From IMG/VR virus record IMGVR_UViG_3300045988_037140, positions 11,143-75,142 of that record: DNA of 64,000 bases; one strand, 5' to 3'. The position numbers and the translations under genes were made by a program. Position 1 is the stretch's first letter, and each line of letters opens with the position of its first letter. A model generated the notes under the pieces. That model was given only the letters and a program-made list of their open reading frames with translations. It had not been told where the DNA came from and did not search any database. This stretch comes from a virus. Shown in pieces: positions 1,335 through 63,101 of this stretch.

Positions 1335-1425
1335 TGCCCCGTGGTGTAATGGTTAGCACGGCGGTCTCTAAAACCGTATCCCTCTGAAGGAGTAAGTCTG
1401 GGTTCGAACCCCAGCGGGGCTGCCA
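1335..1425 (+). tRNA. amber-suppressor tRNA (anticodon CUA, reads UAG), type II-like with Gln-like determinants
   Basis: Anticodon stem gcggt/accgt with a 7-nt loop ctCTAaa (U33, A37). T-arm ctggg-ttcgaac-cccag; acceptor tgccccg/cggggct with a U1-U72 mismatch; discriminator G73; CCA. The variable arm is 20 nt (ctct-gaa-ggag hairpin); D-arm gtgt-aatggtta-gcac. Confidence 0.7.
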
Positions 1426-4116: not shown

Positions 4117-4462
4117 GGGGGTATAAAGGTTTCGACGGGGCATTGAGAAGTTAGAACACACGGGTAGGCGACCTCCTTACGGCGCAACAAACAATTAACT
4201 GACAACAATTATTTTGATTCTCACATGGCAGCTTGAGCTTTTGCTCGCTGACCATTAACTGTATACCTCTGGTTTCTTTGTTTTCCTTCTAAAAATAAAG
4301 TGGTGGATGCGTTGTACTTATAACCGGTACGGCCCTATAGTTTAGTTAGTTTGTTCTTGACTTGTGGCTCTATTCAAAAGCTATAAATAAGGACTATCGT
4401 GTAAGAATGTTCTGATTAAGTAGATGTTTCGGACACGGGTTCGACTCCCGTTACCTCCACCA
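4117..4462 (+). ncRNA. ssrA: tmRNA (SsrA), phage-encoded
   Basis: 5' end gggggtataaaggtttcgacgggg and 3' end tttcggacacgggttcgactcccgttacctccacca match the canonical tmRNA ends (GGGG...GGUUUCGACGGGG ... UUCGGACGCGGGUUCAACUCCCG...CUCCACCA). The acceptor gggggta/tacctcc pairs. Candidate tag ORF: ...DNNYFDSHMAA followed by TGA. Confidence 0.75.
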
Positions 4463-4642: not shown

Positions 4643-4719
4643 AGTTTGGTAGCTCAGTTGGTTAGAGCACTCGATTGATAATCGAGAGGTCGTGAGTTCA
4701 AGTCTCACCCAGACTACCA
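4643..4719 (+). tRNA. tRNA-Ile (GAT)
   Basis: Acceptor agtttgg/ccagact; anticodon stem ctcga/tcgag; loop ttGATaa; T-arm gtgag-ttcaagt-ctcac; CCA. Confidence 0.8.
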
Positions 4720-4781
4720 TTTGGAGATATTTCTTTAATTTAATTATCTTTTTCTTTATAAGTATTGAGGAAGGTGATAAA

Positions 4782-5642
4782 ATGAAGATTTATAATCCAA
4801 TTAACTATTCCTATATCACTGTTGTAGAAATTCCAAAGACAGAGATTTCAAAGTTCGATATGGCGCTATGTCAACAGCCTCGTTAGACTTTGAAAGCCTA
4901 CTATGATAGTTGCGCTGTTAAGCCTTCTATCGTTTCCAATGGTGGTTTCTTCAGCATGACTGATGGTTCAACAGCCTTTAACTATACCGATGAAGGTATA
5001 ATCATTAGTTCTAATTCTCTTTACAAAGAAGGATTTGGAACTGTCAATGGAGAGTTAAAGTACGGTGTAATTGGTCAAGAGAAGTTTGAGGACTTCGTAA
5101 GTGGCTATCCAGTCTTAATTAAGGCGGGCGCCGCAGTTCCTATTACTATTGCTTCCGAGATTAACTACAAGGCTAGAAGAACTATTCTAGCTTATAATAA
5201 AGAAAATATCTTTATTGTAGCTATTGAATCTCCGGGCATGAACTTCTCACAAATGCAATCTTTCTTGCGGACTCTCAAGGTTGACTACGCTATTAACCTT
5301 GATGGAGGCGGAAGTACCAAGATATTGCATGATGGCAAGTGTATCACAAAGGCGCTTGCTAATCGTCCTGTTGATAATATAATGGCTGTTTATCTAAAGC
5401 CAAAAGTTATTTACAGAGTATAGCTTGGTGCATTTAGCAAGAAAGCTAATGCAGATGCATTTTTAGCTAAAATCAAGGCTCTTCCTGATACTATCAATGC
5501 AGGATATAAGAATGCTTATGTTCGCAAGGTTGGTAGTTATTGGAAGGTTCAAATTGGTGCGTTCTCTGTGAAAGCTAACGCAACACGAGTTGTAAATGAT
5601 CTAAAGAGTAAGGGCTATAATGCCTTCATTACGACAACTTGA
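4782..5642 (+). CDS. phosphodiester-glycosidase-like (NAGPA/DUF2233-type, ...INLDGGGS...) protein with a C-terminal SPOR domain; two in-frame TAG codons
   Basis: ATG at 4782 with RBS gaggaaggtga. In-frame TAGs at 4884 and 5421 join the ORF-track pieces 4692-4886 and 4890-5423 to a C-terminal extension ending at TGA 5640-5642. The extension contains two SPOR-type repeats, RV*LGAFS and KVQIGAFS. Confidence 0.55.
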
Positions 5643-5657
5643 TTTTCTAAAAATATT

Positions 5658-5685: not shown

Positions 5686-5791
5686 AAGACGCTTGCCGCA
5701 ACCACTACTATTGTAATAGTCAAAAGGTTAAGACATTTCTCTACAAAAGAAACAATTTGGGTTCGATTCCCAATTACACAAAAGGCGTCTT
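5686..5791 (+). ncRNA. AAGAC-clamped tRNA-like ncRNA module B
   Basis: Clamp aagacgc/gcgtctt. Interior: hairpin tttct-ctacaaa-agaaa (anticodon-arm-like), T-arm ttggg-ttcgatt-cccaa, and a 5-bp A/U acceptor-like pairing tgtaa/ttaca. No CCA. Confidence 0.35.
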
Positions 5792-34983: not shown

Positions 34984-36390
34984 TTGGCGGATAATGCTCA
35001 AGTTATTTGGGATTATCTCAAATCAAAAGGATTAAGTAACTGCGGCGCCGCAGGTCTAATGGGGAATCTATTCGCGGAAAGTGGACTTATTCCAACTAAC
35101 TTATAGAACTCATATGAGAGCAAGTTAGGAATGAACGATGCCTCGTATACTGCGGCTGTTGATAATGGCTCCTATACCAATTTCACGCATGATTCTGCTG
35201 GATATGGTTTAGCTCAATGGACATATTGGAGCCGCAAGCAAGGTCTGTTTTAGCTGTGCAAAAGTCGAGGAAAGTCTATTGGTGACTTGAACACTCAACT
35301 AGATTTTTTATATCAGGAACTAACTACAAGTTATTCCTAGCTATTAAAAATCTTGAAGACTACCTCATCTGTTGAAGAAGCATCTAATTTAGTGGTCACT
35401 CAATTTGAAAGACCGGTAGATCAAAGCTTTGATGCACTAAAACAACGTGCTTTATATAGTCAACGTTACTTCAATACTTATTCAACGCAAAAGGAGGAAA
35501 TGGCTAAGATGAAATATTCAAACGCCAATCAACCATTGGTTTGCATGATGACCAATAGTACCTGTTATAAGCAAACCCGTAAAATGGATATTAAAGGTGT
35601 ACTCTGGCATAGTACAGGCGCCAATAATAAAACTATTAAACGTTATGTCCAACCATCTGAGAATGATAAAAATTATCAATCTCTGATTGCTAAAATTGGT
35701 AAAAATACCAGTAGAACCGATTGGAATCATAGCTCGTAGCAAGCAGGCGTAAACGCTTGGATTGGTGCTCTTGCAGATGGAAGCGTAGCCGCGGTACAAA
35801 CGTTGCCTTGGAATTATAGACCTTGGGGCTGCGGCTCAGGCCCTAAAGGTAGTTGTAATACTGGATGGATTCAATTTGAAATTTGCGAAGACAATCTAAG
35901 TGACCCCAACTACTTCGCTAAAGTCTACAAAGAGGCTTGCGAATTGACCGCCTACTTATGTAAGACATATAATATCAATCCAAATGGTTCTGTAAATGTA
36001 AATGGCGTAATAGTCCCAACTATTCTTTGCCATCAGGATAGTTATCAGCTTGGTCTTGGCAGTAATCATGCCGATGTATACCACTGGTTCAAGAAATATG
36101 GCAAAGATATGGCAACTGTCCGCAAAGATGTTGCTGCTTTAATGCAGTCTAAAGTTATCGAGGAGGATGATGAAGACATGACTCAAGAGAAATTCAACGA
36201 AATGATGAATGTATATTTAAGCCAGCTTGCTGCACAACCAGTTACTTGGGAACAAGATGCAATGACTTGGGCACAAGCTAATGGCTTAATCAATGGCAAT
36301 GAAAAGGGCCAATTAATGCCAAAGCGTTTTATGACTCGTGGTGAATTTGCAGCCGTTCTAAAACGTTATGCTGAAAAGAGTGGTCAATAA
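34984..36390 (+). CDS. modular endolysin: phage-lysozyme2-type N-terminal domain (GAAGLMGNLFAESG) + central domain + C-terminal SLH cell-wall-binding domain; four in-frame TAG codons
   Basis: TTG start 8 nt after ggagg. In-frame TAGs at 35104, 35251, 35338 and 35737 join the ORF-track pieces 35353-35739 and 35803-36390 in one frame. C-terminal WAQANGLINGNEKGQLMPKRFMTRGEFAAVLKRY is an S-layer-homology motif. Confidence 0.65.
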
Positions 36391-36716
36391 TGACTCGTCA
36401 AACAAGAGGGAAAAGAAGACACAACTAGAAGAGAGAATTTTCTAAACAACTTATTTGCGATATTCGCTCTTTATTGTGGATTGTAACTATCTCTGGTATT
36501 GCTCTTGCTTTCTATTGCGTACATCTCGGTTATTTAGGCACTCTTCCATGGATTAGTGCATTAGTAGGATTGCCATGGTCTGCGCATGGTATTGTTTGCT
36601 CTTTTTACTTAAACATGAGTAAATCCGATCACCGCAAGGGTGGGATTACTTATGATTTAGCTATGTGTGAGAAACAATAGCAGCAAGTAGTCGAGGATGA
36701 AGCAACCATTTAATAT
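36390..36716 (+). CDS. holin (two TM helices) with a possible N-terminal KR-rich extension read through TAG (antiholin-like dual start?)
   Basis: ORF-track core 36474-36680 (two TM). ATG 36390 overlaps the lysin TAA and is in the same frame through TAG 36426. The TAG at 36678 extends the C-terminus by QQVVEDEATI to TAA 36714-36716. Confidence 0.5.
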
Positions 36717-43796: not shown

Positions 43797-44714
43797 ATGA
43801 TTTATTATATATTATCAGGCTTGGTTATTCTTGCGTTAATAGGATATGTTTTATATCTCCGCAATAATCGGCTTTAGGTAGTATTGATAAATAAAGAAAG
43901 ACAAGAAGAAAATAAGCGTATTGAACAAGATATTGCATTGAAATAGAGAGAATTAGCAAAAGTAAAAGAAGATATTGTATCACATAATGAAATTGTCAAT
44001 TCTTTAAACGATACTGCGAATAAATTGCGGGAAAGCGCTGAATAGCGAGCGAAAGAGAGCGCTAAGGCTCAATTTGAAAAGAAAAGTAAAGAGCTTGATG
44101 AAACATATCAAGCTAAAGAAAAATATCATTTAGCAGAACTTCAGCAGATAACTAATCAAATTTCACATTAGCAAGATAAACTCCATGAATTAGAAGCTAA
44201 ATAGTTATCTTATATCTAGGCTCAATAGCGCCAAGAAGCGATTGCCGCAGATTAGGACTATTATCGTCTTGCTATTGATGAATTTAGTTTGAATGATATT
44301 ACTCTATTGCGTGATTTGCAAATTCACTTTGTGAAAAAGGAAATCATTGATAAAGTAATATGGGAGACCTATTATCGTCCTGCGTATGATATTCTTATGA
44401 CCCATCTATTTGCCACTAATAAAGGTAAAGTATGCGGTATCTATAAGATTACCGATCTAACAACTGGTTAGGCTTATATTGGTTAGTCTGTTGATATTAA
44501 AGAGCGTTTTAGACAGCACATTAAAACCTCTTTAGCATACGGACCTGCGACTAATAAGTTATATTAGGCGATGCAAAAATCTGGTCAATATAATTTTATA
44601 TTTGAGGTTTTGGAAGAAGTGCCTAGAGATTAGTTAAATGAACGAGAGACTTATTGGATTGAGTTCTATAAGACTAAAGAGCTAGGTATGAATGGAACTC
44701 GTGGAGGTTCATAA
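43797..44714 (+). CDS. GIY-YIG endonuclease domain fused to an N-terminal TM + coiled-coil (i-spanin-like) region; about 13 in-frame TAG codons
   Basis: ATG 43797. N-terminus MIYYILSGLVILALIGYVLYL (TM), then a Q/E/K-rich coiled coil. C-terminus GIYKITDLTTG*AYIG*SVDIKERFRQH...WIEFYKT = GIY-YIG. TAGs fall at conserved-motif positions. Ends at TAA 44712-44714. The ORF track shows only the fragment 44289-44471. Confidence 0.55.
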
Positions 44715-52296: not shown

Positions 52297-54006
52297 ATGG
52301 ATTATTAGCTGATTAAGCCTATTCATGACGGTTACTCCGCTATTGAACAGGTGTTGACAAATAGAGGAATTAAATTTGAAGATATTGACCATTATCTTAA
52401 TGTATCAGAATCAGATAATTTATCGCCCCTTTTACTCAAAAATATTGAGAGTGCAGCTAAGATGATTTTTAATCAACTTAGTAAAGATAGTTTTCATATT
52501 CATGTGCAAGTGGATAGCGACTGCGATGGATACACTTCAGCAGCTTTGTTATTGAATTATATCCATGCTGTATTCCCATCTGCTATATCGCATATTTCAT
52601 ATAGTTTCCACGATGGCAAGATTCATGGTATTAACCCTGAGTTGATTCCACCAGAGACAACATTAGTCATTGCTCCAGATTCAAGCTCTAATGACTATGA
52701 TATTCACAAAGCTCTTCATGATAAGGGTATTGAAGTTCTTGTATTGGATCACCACTAGGCTGAGAGAATTTCAGAATATGCTTGTATTGTGAATAATCAA
52801 CTTTGTGATTATCCTACTAAATCGCTTTCCGGTGTTGGTGTAGTTTATAAGCTATGTCAGTTTATTGATTCTCTGCTTCCCGCAGATCAACAGAAAGCGG
52901 ATCAATTCTTGGATATAGTAGCTATTGGCTTAGTTGGAGATATGATGGATTTAAGAGATTTTGAAACACACTATCTAGTTCAGACTGGATTAAATCAAAT
53001 TCAAAATCCATTTATCAAAGGTATGGCAGAAAAGAATCATTACCAGTTAGGCGATCACCCTACTCCTATCGGGGTGGCTTTCTATATTGTACCACTTATT
53101 AACTCAATTACAAGAGTTGGAACGATGACTGAAAAGACTTTATTATTTGAGTCGATGCTTAACTGGAAAGCCTTTGATTTAGTTCCTTCAACTAAGAGAG
53201 GATGCTCTGGTCAGCAAGAGACAAGATTGGAACAAAGTTTGCGGACTTGCACTAATGTCAAGAATCGGCAAACGAGAAATCAGGATGCCGCGGTTGAACA
53301 GGTTAAAGCAATCATCGAGGATAATAAACTTCTCGATCATAAGATTTTGTTAATTAAATTAGAACACCCTTCTTTTGATAGAGGTATCACTGGTTTAATT
53401 GCTAACAAACTTATGGCAGAATACCAGCGTCCTGTGGCACTGTTAGTGGAAGTAGAAGAAGATGGGAAAATCGCTTGGAGCGGTTCGGCACGTGGATATG
53501 AGAAATCTAAACTAAATGATTTCAGAGGCTTTTGTCGAGATAGCGGTTTAGTTTATCTTGCTGAAGGTCATCCTAATGCATTTGGTTTCGGTATCTTAGA
53601 CGAGAATTTTGATGCCTTTCTCGAATATGCCGATAATGCACTCAAGGATATAGAATTTTCACCAAGTTATAAAGTGGATTTTATTCATTCTGTAAACAAC
53701 TTTAATCCTAAAGAAATTCTTGAACTAGGTAACATGAAAAATCTTTGGGGTCAAAATGTTGATGAACCACTTATCGCGGTGGAAAATGTTGCAGTAACAA
53801 AAGACATGATTACACTCATGGCAAGAGATAGGAACCCCACGTTGAAGATCCAATTACCCAACGGAGTTACTTGCATCAAGTTTAAATCAAGCGAAGAGGA
53901 GCTGGATAGTTTGTTCAGCGAAAACGGTTGCGTGACTATTAATCTTGTGGGTAAGGCCGAAGTAAATAAATACTTCAATACTGTAACACCACAACTTATT
54001 ATTTAG
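52297..54006 (+). CDS. DHH-family phosphoesterase (RecJ-like exonuclease / DHH-DHHA1) with two in-frame TAG codons
   Basis: Strong RBS aaggaggtaaatc + ATG 52297. TAGs at 52306 and 52756 (right after the DHH motif VLVLDHH*AER). ORF-track pieces 52351-52758 and 52789-54006 share one frame. DSDCDGYTSAA is DHH motif I. Confidence 0.6.
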
Positions 54007-54082
54007 AATTATGAGATTATAAATCGTCAGGAATATTATTTTTAATGATTGCGCGACCTCTTACTAAAGGAGGAACAATCAA

Positions 54083-54847
54083 ATGAGTCGTTTTATTAAA
54101 GTTATCACAAGTTTAATCATTATATTGTCTTTATGCGGATGTAGCTATGGCCTAGCGGTCACTACTCAAGCCTATTCCGTGCCGTATAACGAAACTGTTA
54201 GTTATACTCTTGATGATATGGATACATTGGTTGAGCTTATTGCGGAACAAATCTCGAATATGAACGCCGCACATCAAATGGCTGAAGCTGCTAGATAGCT
54301 AGGCTATAGTGAAGACCATGACGTCATTGTATTAGCAAAACAAGAACACGCTGATGCAAATGCTTTGAGAATGAAATATCAAAGCATATATGATCAACTC
54401 ATGGAACATTGGCATCAAAAGGAAGAAGAGTACCCAACAGCTACTTATATATGGACCTACTTCAAAGATCTGGGCTACAGTAACCAAGTTTGCGCTGGCA
54501 TTCTTGGTAATATAATGGCTGAAACTGGAGGTAACACATTAGACATTCAAGCCACGATTTCTGGTAACGGATATTATGGTATATGTCAATGGAATAAAGC
54601 CTACTCAAATGTATGGGGAGCCTCGTTAGAAGAGCAATGCGACTATCTGCGAGATACTATTGAGTACGAGTTCGATACATTCGGTTATGTTTATAAGAGA
54701 CATTTTGATTACAATAGTTTCTTGAATTTAACCGACATTAAGAGCGCTGCTCTAGCATTTGCTAAATGCTATGAGAGATGCGGTTCTGGGAGCTATTATA
54801 CGCGACAGCAAAATGCTATTGCTGCATATAATTACTTCATAAGTTAA
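54083..54847 (+). CDS. lipoprotein with a phage-lysozyme2-type peptidoglycan-hydrolase domain; one in-frame TAG
   Basis: Signal peptide + lipobox LSLCGC. TAG 54296 joins ORF-track pieces 54083-54298 and 54365-54847 in one frame. VCAGILGNIMAETGGN is paralogous to the endolysin N-terminal domain. Confidence 0.55.
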
Positions 54848-60860: not shown

Positions 60861-63101
60861 TTGCTACAAGTGAAAAAGAGAAATGGTATCCTTGTACCAT
60901 TTGATAAGCAAAGAATCGTTAATGCCATCAATAAGGCTTTTATCGAAGTTGATGGTACTTTATATGAAGAAGATACAGCAAATGATATTGCTGATGAAAT
61001 TAAGTATAGTGTAAAAACCGCAGATAAAATTATCTCTGTTGAGGAAATTCAAGACATGGTTGAAGACTTCCTCATGCGGTCTGAGCGCAAGGACGTGGCT
61101 AAAACCTACATTCGTTATCGCTATAAGCGAGAAGTTGCGCGCTCCGGTAGAGACGATTTTATTAAGGCTTTCTCTGAGAAGATTAACGGTACAGCCATTG
61201 AGAATTAGAACGCTAATGTCGATGAAATGTCATTCGGCGGTCGAGTTGGCGCAGGTTCTGACTTGCAAATGAAGAGATACGCTCTAGATTACTGCGTCTC
61301 TGATATGGCTCGCCGCAATCACGAGAACAATGAAATTTATATCCATGATCTATCTGCATATGCAGTTGGTATGCACAACTGTCTTTCTATTCCTTTTGAT
61401 GATCTACTTGCAAAAGGCTTCAATACTAGACAGACTGACGTGCGGCCCGCAGGTTCTGTGAATACTGCTTTCCAATTAGTTGCTGTTATTTTCCAGCTTC
61501 AATCCTTACAGCAGTTTGGTGGAGTAAGTGCTACTCATCTTGACTGGACTATGGTTCCTTATGTAAGAAAAAGTTTTAGAAAACACTATATTGAAGGTTT
61601 AAAGTATATTGAGAATATCTCCGATAAAGAGCTTTTTGACCATATCCCAGATACTGCTGGAATTGAAGATAATGAATATATGATTTATGATAAAGCATAT
61701 CAATATGCTCTTGATATGACTGTTAAAGAAGTACATCAAGCTGTAGAAGGTATGTATCATAATCTTAATACTCTCCAGTCTCGCTCTGGTAATCAATTAC
61801 CTTTTACTTCTATCAACTATGGTACTTGTACGTTGCCAGAAGGTAGAATGGTCACGAAAGCATTGCTTGATGTTTCTATTGAGGGACTTGGTAGATTACA
61901 TAAGACTTCTATCTTCCCATGTGGTATCTTCCAGTGCATGAAAGGCGTCAATCAAAAGCCCGGTGATCCAAACTATGATCTGTTTAGACTGGCTCTAAGA
62001 TCTACTGCAACTAGACTTTATCCCAACTATGCTAATGTTGATTGGTCTGGTAATGCGGGATATGACATCAATGACCCCAAGACCTATTTCTCTACTATGG
62101 GCTGCCGCACCGCAAATGGCTGGGATATCAACGGTATGGGTCAAACAAAAGATGGTCGTGGTAATATTTGCCCCGTAACTATTATCATGCCTACTTTAGC
62201 TATGGAGTGTAAGATTAACTTTGATGCAGATGTAAAAGGCCATTATTCTTTTAATGATAGACAAATTTTAATTGACAGATTCCTTTATAAACTTGACCAG
62301 AAGATCCATGAAGCAAAAGATATGCTGATTGAACGCTTTGATTATATCTGCTCTCAACCCGCGGCATCCGCTAAATTCATGTATGAGAACGGCTTAATGG
62401 CAGGATATGATGGTAAGACTACTCGTAGTGCTCTTAGACATGGTACTCTTGCTGTTGGTCAGATCGGTCTAGCTGAGACTCTGCAAATCCTTATCGGTCA
62501 AGACCATACTACTCCAGAAGGTATGGAACTAGCGAAACGAATTGAACAGCTCTTCAAGGATAGATGTGCAGAGTTTAAAGAACAGTATAAGTTAAACTTT
62601 GGTGTATATTATACACCTGCTGAGAATCTTTGCTATACCGCTATGACAAAATTCAAAGAGAAGTATGGAGAGATTCCTAATGTGAGTGACAGAGATTACT
62701 TTACTAACTCTATTCATGTTCCAGTCTGGAAAGAAATGTCTCCGTTCGATAAGATTGATATTGAAAGCCAGTTAACTGGGTATTCTTCTGCTGGTTGCAT
62801 CACTTATGTCGAACTTGATAGCGGTGTCAAAAATAACATTGATGCTTTGGAAACTCTAGTGCATTATGCTATGGAACATGACATTCCTTACTTTGCTATC
62901 AATGTTCCTAATGATACTTGTCTTGAATGTGGTTTCATGGACGAATTTAATGATCACTGCCCTGTTTGTGGAAGCCATCATATCCAGCAGCTTAGACGAG
63001 TGACTGGTTATCTAACTGGTAACTATACGACTGCATTTAATGCAGGTAAAATTGCAGAAACAAATGATAGAGTAAAACACGCTGGTCGATTGGAGGAATG
63101 A
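60861..63101 (+). CDS. nrdD: anaerobic ribonucleoside-triphosphate reductase NrdD (ATP-cone + catalytic + glycyl-radical domain); one in-frame TAG
   Basis: ORF-track pieces 60861-61208 (ATP cone, VKKRNGILVPFDKQRIVNAINKA) and 61227-63101 (catalytic domain, C-terminal CLECG...CPVCG zinc ribbon, RVTGYLTG glycyl radical) share one frame through TAG 61206-61208. Confidence 0.7.

Follow-up and report, generated by a model that had tools for sequence, protein, structure and literature searches.

Our study concerns a gene of a large gut phage, in a 64,000-nucleotide (nt) stretch of viral DNA, hereafter the window (positions 11,143 to 75,142 of IMG/VR record IMGVR_UViG_3300045988_037140). The gene, NAGPA-SPOR, lies in a tRNA array and encodes a protein that joins a module of the NAGPA (DUF2233) phosphodiester-glycosidase family to a C-terminal SPOR domain. 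The following features make up the locus.

4782..5643, plus strand: NAGPA-SPOR coding sequence, 286 amino acids (aa) with TAG read as glutamine; ATG at 4782, TGA stop at 5641-5643
4767..4777, plus strand: putative Shine-Dalgarno-like element, GAGGAAGGTGA, 4 nt before the ATG, read from the sequence
4884..4886, plus strand: in-frame TAG, codon 35 of the NAGPA-SPOR gene
5421..5423, plus strand: in-frame TAG, codon 214, at the conserved Gln of SPOR strand beta-1 (YRV-Q-LGAF)
4782..5402, plus strand: NAGPA-fold module, aa 1-207; the Pfam match covers aa 50-204 (nt 4929-5393)
5412..5633, plus strand: SPOR domain, aa 211-284, two beta-alpha-beta-beta repeats

Under the standard bacterial code the frame 4782-5643 is closed by its two internal TAG codons, and a list of open reading frames made with code 11 holds only a 177-aa piece at this locus (4890-5423). 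The NAGPA-SPOR fusion thus exists only if TAG specifies an amino acid. A first-pass annotation, made from the letters of the window, had described a single fused reading frame here; the domains and coordinates that it gave are real, but it overlooked the two amber codons, and the frame is not open in the standard code. The exact product with TAG translated as glutamine is present on 14 contigs in public collections, the longest of 147 kb, and falls in a 90%-identity cluster of 802 members. Because the TAG at codon 35 splits off the first 34 residues, the gene is mis-annotated wherever code 11 is assumed, and the resulting 34-aa stub (P0272) is found on 52 public contigs, NCBI records included. 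A promoter and terminator scan around the gene gave results close to those for shuffled sequence (13 sites against 8.2±2.9; 4 against 3.4±1.8), and therefore no transcription unit can be claimed for it.

TAG is decoded as glutamine in this phage (genetic code 15). Codons were compared across a set of 37 distinct homologous genes, taken from viral as well as metagenomic contigs. TAG sites shift among lineages, and where one gene has TAG the others nearly always have CAA or CAG. CAA/CAG and TAG are found in 34 and 2 genes, respectively, at reference position 32, in 18 and 16 at position 159, in 30 and 4 at position 214, and in 33 and 1 at position 257. The column of codon 35 is composed of TAG in 23 of the 37 genes (three clades, at least 65% identity), GAA/GAG in 12 and CAA/CAG in 2. 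The idea that the amber codon at this position acts as an obligatory gate was dropped: the gene of one relative in a tRNA array (L029, 67% identity) has no TAG, and distant members have Glu there. Three further features of the window bear on the decoding of TAG.

1335..1425, plus strand: amber-suppressor tRNA, anticodon CTA, found by ARAGORN (Rfam tRNA, 54.5 bits), in the same-strand array as the NAGPA-SPOR gene
60861-63101: NrdD gene interrupted by TAG, with a Pfam domain that runs across it
52297-54045: DHH/RecJ-like gene interrupted by TAG, likewise with a Pfam domain across it

A Pfam domain also extends across TAG in the endolysin of the phage, and in-frame TAG is present in a GIY-YIG gene. 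With readthrough of TAG, 60 window genes of at least 80 aa stop at TAA (46) or TGA (14), with a few true TAG stops before short extensions still possible. The suppressor tRNA has U1 and G73, and its acceptor and D arm align with those of tRNA-Gln genes from related phages; in its identity elements it resembles a tRNA-Gln. We read TAG as glutamine because it alternates with CAA/CAG, because domains span it, because the tRNA(CUA) is present and because, with readthrough, the genes counted end at TAA or TGA.

The second amber codon of the gene offers an independent internal check of this assignment, since it falls at the most conserved functional residue of the SPOR domain. Codon 214 corresponds to Q270 of RlpA and Q251 of FtsN, the only highly conserved SPOR residue, which contacts both N-acetylmuramic acid (MurNAc) and N-acetylglucosamine (GlcNAc) (PMC6895207). 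The glutamine expected in strand beta-1 is supplied here only by TAG, with a small residue (A217) at +3. The motif recurs in the protein as WKV-Q-IGAF, and there the glutamine codon is CAA.

If TAG were an ordinary stop codon, the locus would hold a decayed gene in pieces of 34, 177 and 72 aa and there would be no fusion; we regard this as very improbable. It would account for the code-11 list, which gives only 4890-5423, and for the occurrence of the 34-aa fragment on so many public contigs. Against it, all three segments are conserved at the protein level across 55-98% identity, the TAG sites move among lineages and align with CAA/CAG at invariant glutamines, the first 34 residues lie within a confidently modelled fold, a tRNA(CUA) is present and other, essential genes are interrupted by TAG in the same manner.

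Two side observations concern the recoding itself. The suppressor tRNA is 91 nt long, with about 17 extra nt in the variable region, and that of the 75%-identity clade (L001, 8490-8562) is of the ordinary 73 nt. The GIY-YIG nuclease gene (43797-44714, plus strand) encodes a hydrophobic segment at the N-terminus and a coiled coil rich in Gln. Of its 26 Gln-like codons, 12 are TAG (p = 3e-9; average over the window, 5.4%), and no other gene of the window is significantly enriched in TAG; it echoes the homing endonuclease that Borges et al. (10.1101/2021.08.26.457843) described as strongly recoded.

The N-terminal module belongs to the NAGPA family by both sequence and fold, as the first-pass annotation had proposed for its phosphodiester-glycosidase domain with a DGGGS motif. 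Pfam NAGPA (PF09992, DUF2233) matches with E 3.2e-17 and 63.7 bits against a curated cut-off of 25, over profile positions 5-169 of 169. The motif quoted earlier, AINLDGGGSTKIL, spans aa 170-182, and within it the DGGGS loop (nt 5301-5315, D174-S178) aligns to the DGGGS of 6PKU. A structure was modelled with AlphaFold2 for a 98% identical homologue (P0001), using 59 family sequences, and has a mean predicted local distance difference test score (pLDDT) of 92.6. A Foldseek search of this model against the PDB retrieves the catalytic domains of guinea-pig, zebrafish and Xenopus NAGPA (E about 1e-11 to 6e-10), with 6PKY/6PKU at about 1e-11 and the Bacteroides DUF2233 structure 3OHG at 7e-10; the top 13 matches are all NAGPA, DUF2233 or Slr0280 (E 9e-12 to 4e-9), and share a three-subdomain alpha/beta fold.

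A family profile matches the PDB NAGPA chains at E 2e-11, and in the profile alignment to guinea-pig NAGPA residue F56 takes the place of human F140, E126 that of E226, and D174-GGGS that of D286-GGGS. In human NAGPA, F140 forms the base of the pocket, E226 binds the N-acetyl group and D286 is the essential Asp, as described in a 2026 cryo-electron microscopy study (PMC13474241). The loop D174-S178 and the arginines R133 and R195 do not vary among 60 family members, and in 117 distant representatives their conservation is still 90% or higher. In the model, beta-strands of the NAGPA domain take up residues 1-29 (pLDDT 94-97); the protein has no signal peptide, lipobox or transmembrane segment.

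The C-terminal SPOR domain is equally clear. Pfam SPOR (PF05036) matches with E 5.3e-17 and 62.3 bits against a cut-off of 21, so that both families named in the first-pass annotation are matched well above their curated thresholds, and a profile search of the PDB finds CwlC (1X60, E 9e-13) and FtsN (1UTA, E 8e-3). In the model the domain is composed of strands 211-218, 246-250, 253-261 and 281-284 and helices 221-232 and 264-276, which form the ribonucleoprotein-like SPOR fold of a four-stranded sheet and two helices; Foldseek matches it to CwlC 1X60 with a template modelling (TM) score, normalized to the target, of 0.73. By analogy with other SPOR domains, its predicted role is to bind peptide-free glycan.

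To place the catalytic module in context we took the best 117 cluster representatives from an exhaustive profile search (4,800 representatives at E ≤1e-3, 141 at E ≤1e-30) and recorded the domains found beside it; 115 of the 117 match the NAGPA hidden Markov model. Alignments of homologues to the module (about 207 aa) begin at residue 1 and end near residue 208, whatever C-terminal partner follows. The partners are:

SPOR, in 48 representatives
SH3_3, in 24
SLH, in 14
Amidase_2, in 12
SH3_4, in 8
LysM, in 7
PG_binding_1, in 7
Amidase_3, in 4
Peptidase_M23, in 2
GH25, CHAP, NlpC/P60 and M15_4, in 1 each

These are the usual partner domains of endolysins and autolysins. Structural neighbours in BFVD are annotated as endolysin, CHAP, autolysin or muramidase, and the viral neighbours include proteins of Staphylococcus phage vB_SscM-1, Bacillus phage VMY22 and Lactobacillus phage LP65. 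The SPOR part matches the PHROG endolysin families 20388 and 15001, whose catalytic portions match the endolysin of this very phage, as well as amidase-SPOR endolysins of Faecalibacterium phages. The phage's endolysin has SLH where these related PHROG families have SPOR. A 2026 survey of gut-phage endolysins lists both Amidase-SPOR and CHAP-NAGPA-SH3_3 architectures (PMC13284279).

The statement in the first-pass annotation that the enzyme is not a standard phage lysin is therefore overstated: SPOR is a known wall-binding domain of endolysins (PMC13284279) and the NAGPA module of relatives is fused to lysin domains, and it follows that the NAGPA-SPOR protein has an ordinary lysin layout with an unusual, uncharacterised catalytic module. 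Like the product of a lysis-cassette gene, it combines a catalytic with a wall-binding domain and has no secretion signal; NAGPA and SPOR are the only domains detected in it, NAGPA is not a known peptidoglycan hydrolase, and no holin or other lysis gene adjoins it.

A word-indexed search finds 582 relatives of the protein, the best 120 of which all have both domains and a length of about 226-304 aa; their contigs reach 194 kb. IMG/VR holds 38 loci on contigs of 22-235 kb, and 185,579 species genomes give only three matches, all on contigs of metagenome-assembled genomes (MAGs), with no prophage or host assignment. The family is thus essentially phage-borne, and is confined to phages of about 100-235 kb. 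Proteins of this kind are common in metagenomes, already catalogued and biochemically uncharacterised.

In clades of at least 65% identity to the window protein (L001, L004, L006, L012, L014, L029 and L044) the gene stands in the tRNA array, in many cases with a tRNA 61-63 nt before it; no tRNAs are found near the gene of more distant relatives. When 22.9 kb of the window was compared with 50,697 deposited phage records at near identity, the only DNA match was one of 51 nt in thymidylate synthase, and tblastn of the protein against the same records found the SPOR part only, in 4 records. In a 193-kb relative (L001), proteins with Flg_new repeats and Mtd_N (major tropism determinant) are encoded at 9735-12858, a few kb after its NAGPA-SPOR gene, which hints at the target of a diversity-generating retroelement.

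The position of the gene inside the tRNA island, noted in the first-pass annotation, holds. The array comprises 32 tRNAs and a transfer-messenger RNA (tmRNA) between 281 and 14765 (ARAGORN, Rfam), and its members flank the gene closely on both sides. The features that bear on the setting of the gene are listed here.

4643..4719, plus strand: tRNA-Ile(GAT), 62 nt upstream of the coding sequence
5709..5782, plus strand: AT-rich tRNA with anticodon ACA (A34, nominally Cys), 65 nt downstream of the coding sequence
35059..36390, plus strand: canonical endolysin with Phage_lysozyme2, Amidase_2 and SLH domains and 4 in-frame TAG; start approximate
36390..36713, plus strand: holin-like protein of 107 aa, directly after the endolysin, with two hydrophobic segments and 2 in-frame TAG

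The identified functions of the 64-kb window are those of DNA and nucleotide metabolism (gyrase B/A, the alpha subunit of DNA polymerase III (Pol III), ligase, RNase H, a Dda-like helicase, NrdD, PhoH and RNA ligase), with no structural genes among them, and the neighbours of the NAGPA-SPOR gene are tRNAs and small open reading frames. The 107-aa protein has no Pfam or PHROG match; from its position and hydrophobic segments it is presumably the holin. The endolysin and holin-like genes lie between those for PhoH and RNase H/gyrase, inside the DNA-metabolism region, and for this reason remoteness from structural genes says little about whether the NAGPA-SPOR gene has a role in lysis.

Several other genes of the window were recorded in passing. 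The array also contains a conventional tRNA-Cys(GCA) (14679-14765); a tRNA-like gene (8450-8523, plus strand; Rfam 42.5 bits) with an 8-nt anticodon loop, GTTAAAAG, for which ARAGORN gives the four-base anticodon 'taaa' and no amino-acid assignment; and the tmRNA (4117-4462, plus strand; Rfam 100 bits), with the tag peptide DNNYFDSHMAA. A weak ArfA match lies near the NAGPA-SPOR locus of one relative (L050). A second Phage_lysozyme2 protein (54083-54847, plus strand; one TAG) begins like a lipoprotein (…LSLCGCS) and may be a wall enzyme that is exported. An RNA ligase (23551-24819), an AAA_33 kinase-like protein (29867-30496) and a calcineurin-like phosphoesterase (30511-31197), all on the plus strand, could form a tRNA-repair set in this tRNA-rich phage.

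Our analysis suggests a model for the activity of the NAGPA-SPOR protein. We propose, with moderate confidence, that it is an accessory lysin that gains access to the wall through the holin and cleaves GlcNAc-1-phosphate (GlcNAc-1-P) linkages of wall polymers. The amber-suppressor tRNA would insert glutamine at the two UAG codons to give the full-length protein, which would build up in the cytoplasm and reach the wall when the phage holin permeabilises the membrane. The SPOR domain would then dock it on peptide-free glycan, at septa and, after the action of the phage's Amidase_2 endolysin, across the sacculus, where the NAGPA module would hydrolyse alpha-GlcNAc-1-phosphate glycosidic bonds. 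We infer the substrate, the timing, the dependence on holin and the cooperation with the amidase from the domains and their context.

Sugar-phosphate linkages of wall polymers are a reasonable guess for the substrate. Teichoic acids and secondary wall polymers are attached to peptidoglycan by a GlcNAc-1-P-6-MurNAc linkage unit, and by analogy this appears to be the chemically closest bacterial counterpart of the vertebrate substrate, GlcNAc-alpha-1-P-6-mannose. The linkage of teichoic acid, or of the secondary wall polymers that serve as SLH ligands, would accordingly be the most plausible target, and the stripping of these polymers would aid lysis and virion release. The presence of SLH in the phage's endolysin and in 14 relatives points to hosts with such polymers.

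In a bolder form of the proposal, which we put forward tentatively and think doubtful as a whole, NAGPA modules would constitute a new class of lysin catalytic activity, a 'reverse LCP' that cuts GlcNAc-1-P-6-MurNAc and so detaches teichoic acids, secondary wall polymers and S-layer anchors, with SPOR guiding the enzyme to amidase-stripped glycan and its synthesis tied, in this lineage, to the tRNA array through the conserved amber at codon 35.

A number of observations weigh against the accessory-lysin proposal. Our survey of the literature found no characterised activity of a bacterial or phage NAGPA-family protein, and none on a bacterial wall polymer. The residue R195 probably corresponds to the phosphate-binding R316 of human NAGPA, a match drawn from invariance and spacing rather than from the alignment. 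The endolysin/holin pair lies 29 kb from the NAGPA-SPOR gene, so that timing and holin dependence have to be inferred, and in one distant relative the gene stands between those for DNA ligase and a PIF1-type helicase, near Pol III alpha.

The amber codons do not settle the timing. Recoded stops have been proposed to delay lysis genes (Borges et al., 10.1101/2021.08.26.457843). In this window TAG is present in replication genes (NrdD, RecJ-like and primase-like) besides the endolysin and holin-like genes, and its enrichment in the NAGPA-SPOR gene is not significant (TAG at 2 of the 8 Gln-like codons, background 5.4%, p = 0.066); the amber codons alone therefore do not mark this gene as late or lysis-gated. 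A Clostridia host is suggested only by the SLH domains, the Faecalibacterium-phage SPOR matches and MAG labels, and stripping of the SLH ligand could also free the phage's own SLH-anchored endolysin.

Other roles have been considered for such an enzyme. The first-pass annotation had raised two of them, assistance to entry and prevention of superinfection, and neither finds support here. The protein is unlikely to be a virion-associated depolymerase, trimming teichoic acid or wall polysaccharide as infection begins. NAGPA-like modules do occur in multidomain proteins of 800-1400 aa and in proteins of the cultured Gram-positive phages Staphylococcus vB_SscM-1, Bacillus VMY22 and Lactobacillus LP65, and NAGPA-like proteins of Curtobacterium prophages are predicted depolymerases (PMC9862828), but the protein described here has 286 aa, no virion-attachment or fibre domain and a lysin-type wall-binding partner at its C-terminus. 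Its small gene has tRNAs and small reading frames rather than structural genes as neighbours, in a window of DNA and nucleotide metabolism, and the distant relative's gene between ligase and helicase is in keeping with this.

We judge equally improbable a role in stripping receptors during infection, which would block superinfection or the re-adsorption of progeny to debris. Removal of wall polymers would take away typical receptors of Gram-positive phages, and the gene is in a tRNA-rich, early-type region and not beside the holin. Such a role would require export from the living cell; the protein has no signal peptide, lipobox or transmembrane segment, and its N-terminus is an integral beta-strand of the modelled fold, which leaves the wall of an intact cell out of reach by known routes. 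A 'debris-cleaning' role after lysis cannot be separated from that of an accessory lysin.

The lack of an export signal would suit a cytoplasmic hydrolase of GlcNAc-1-P precursors, such as uridine diphosphate (UDP)-GlcNAc and undecaprenyl-diphosphate-GlcNAc, that shuts down the synthesis of host wall polymers. Vertebrate NAGPA has been reported to hydrolyse UDP-GlcNAc. The turnover of GlcNAc-1-P by NAGPA (PMC13474241) points the same way. We consider this somewhat less probable still, for it would leave no purpose for the SPOR domain, which is conserved, or for SH3, LysM, SLH and PG_binding, the extracytoplasmic wall-binding domains that the module also has as partners.

Should the accessory-lysin proposal be correct, phages of Gram-positive gut bacteria would possess a lysin module whose target is the anchor of wall glycopolymers and not the peptidoglycan itself, and this module could serve as a tool for lysin engineering and for the study of the attachment and turnover of teichoic acids and secondary wall polymers. 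The main interest lies in the catalytic activity of NAGPA modules in lysins. Since annotation with the standard code splits the gene, genes of this kind will be missed or cut short when lysins are surveyed in recoded phages.

The phage and its protein can be compared with several known systems. With the code-15 gut phages (crAss-like, Lak, Agate/Sapphire/Jade and phAss-1) this phage shares TAG in conserved and lysis genes, a tRNA(CUA), a large set of tRNAs and a genome of about 145 kb (10.1101/2021.08.26.457843; PMC10607447; PMC9523058); it differs in having no near DNA relative among the 50,697 records and in recoding that is not limited to late genes.

The fold of the catalytic module is that of vertebrate NAGPA, the 'uncovering enzyme' (6PKU/6PKY/6PKG/6U11), and of 3OHG from Bacteroides ovatus (Foldseek E about 1e-11, TM about 0.6), with which it also shares the Pfam family, the DGGGS loop and the Phe and Glu of the GlcNAc pocket (PMC13474241). 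Identity is only about 20%, and the phage module is compact, with a length of about 207 aa; it lacks a propeptide, an EGF stalk and a membrane anchor. In contrast to vertebrate NAGPA the phage protein is made in the cytoplasm and carries a peptidoglycan-binding domain, and its substrate cannot be the mannose-6-phosphate glycan.

The layout of an N-terminal catalytic domain, a C-terminal SPOR and no signal peptide is that of the Amidase-SPOR endolysins (Faecalibacterium phage FP_Lagaffe; PHROG 20388/15001; CwlC of B. subtilis), and the SPOR domain is 46-47% identical to those of the Faecalibacterium-phage enzymes. SPOR is established as a lysin binding module (PMC13284279; PMC11674121). Unlike the Amidase-SPOR endolysins, the protein carries a NAGPA module, which is not a known hydrolase of peptidoglycan bonds, its gene is not beside a holin gene, and the phage has a separate canonical endolysin.

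A homologous NAGPA module is also present in multidomain phage lysins and predicted depolymerases (CHAP-NAGPA-SH3_3, PMC13284279; Curtobacterium, PMC9862828; UniProt 'Phosphodiester glycosidase' entries of uncultured phages). BFVD matches reach 47% identity, and a 297-aa entry annotated 'Sporulation related domain' aligns over nearly its full length (295 columns), which suggests the same NAGPA and SPOR layout. While these multidomain proteins are known by annotation only, in the present lineage the module is encoded by a gene with amber codons, set within a tRNA array.

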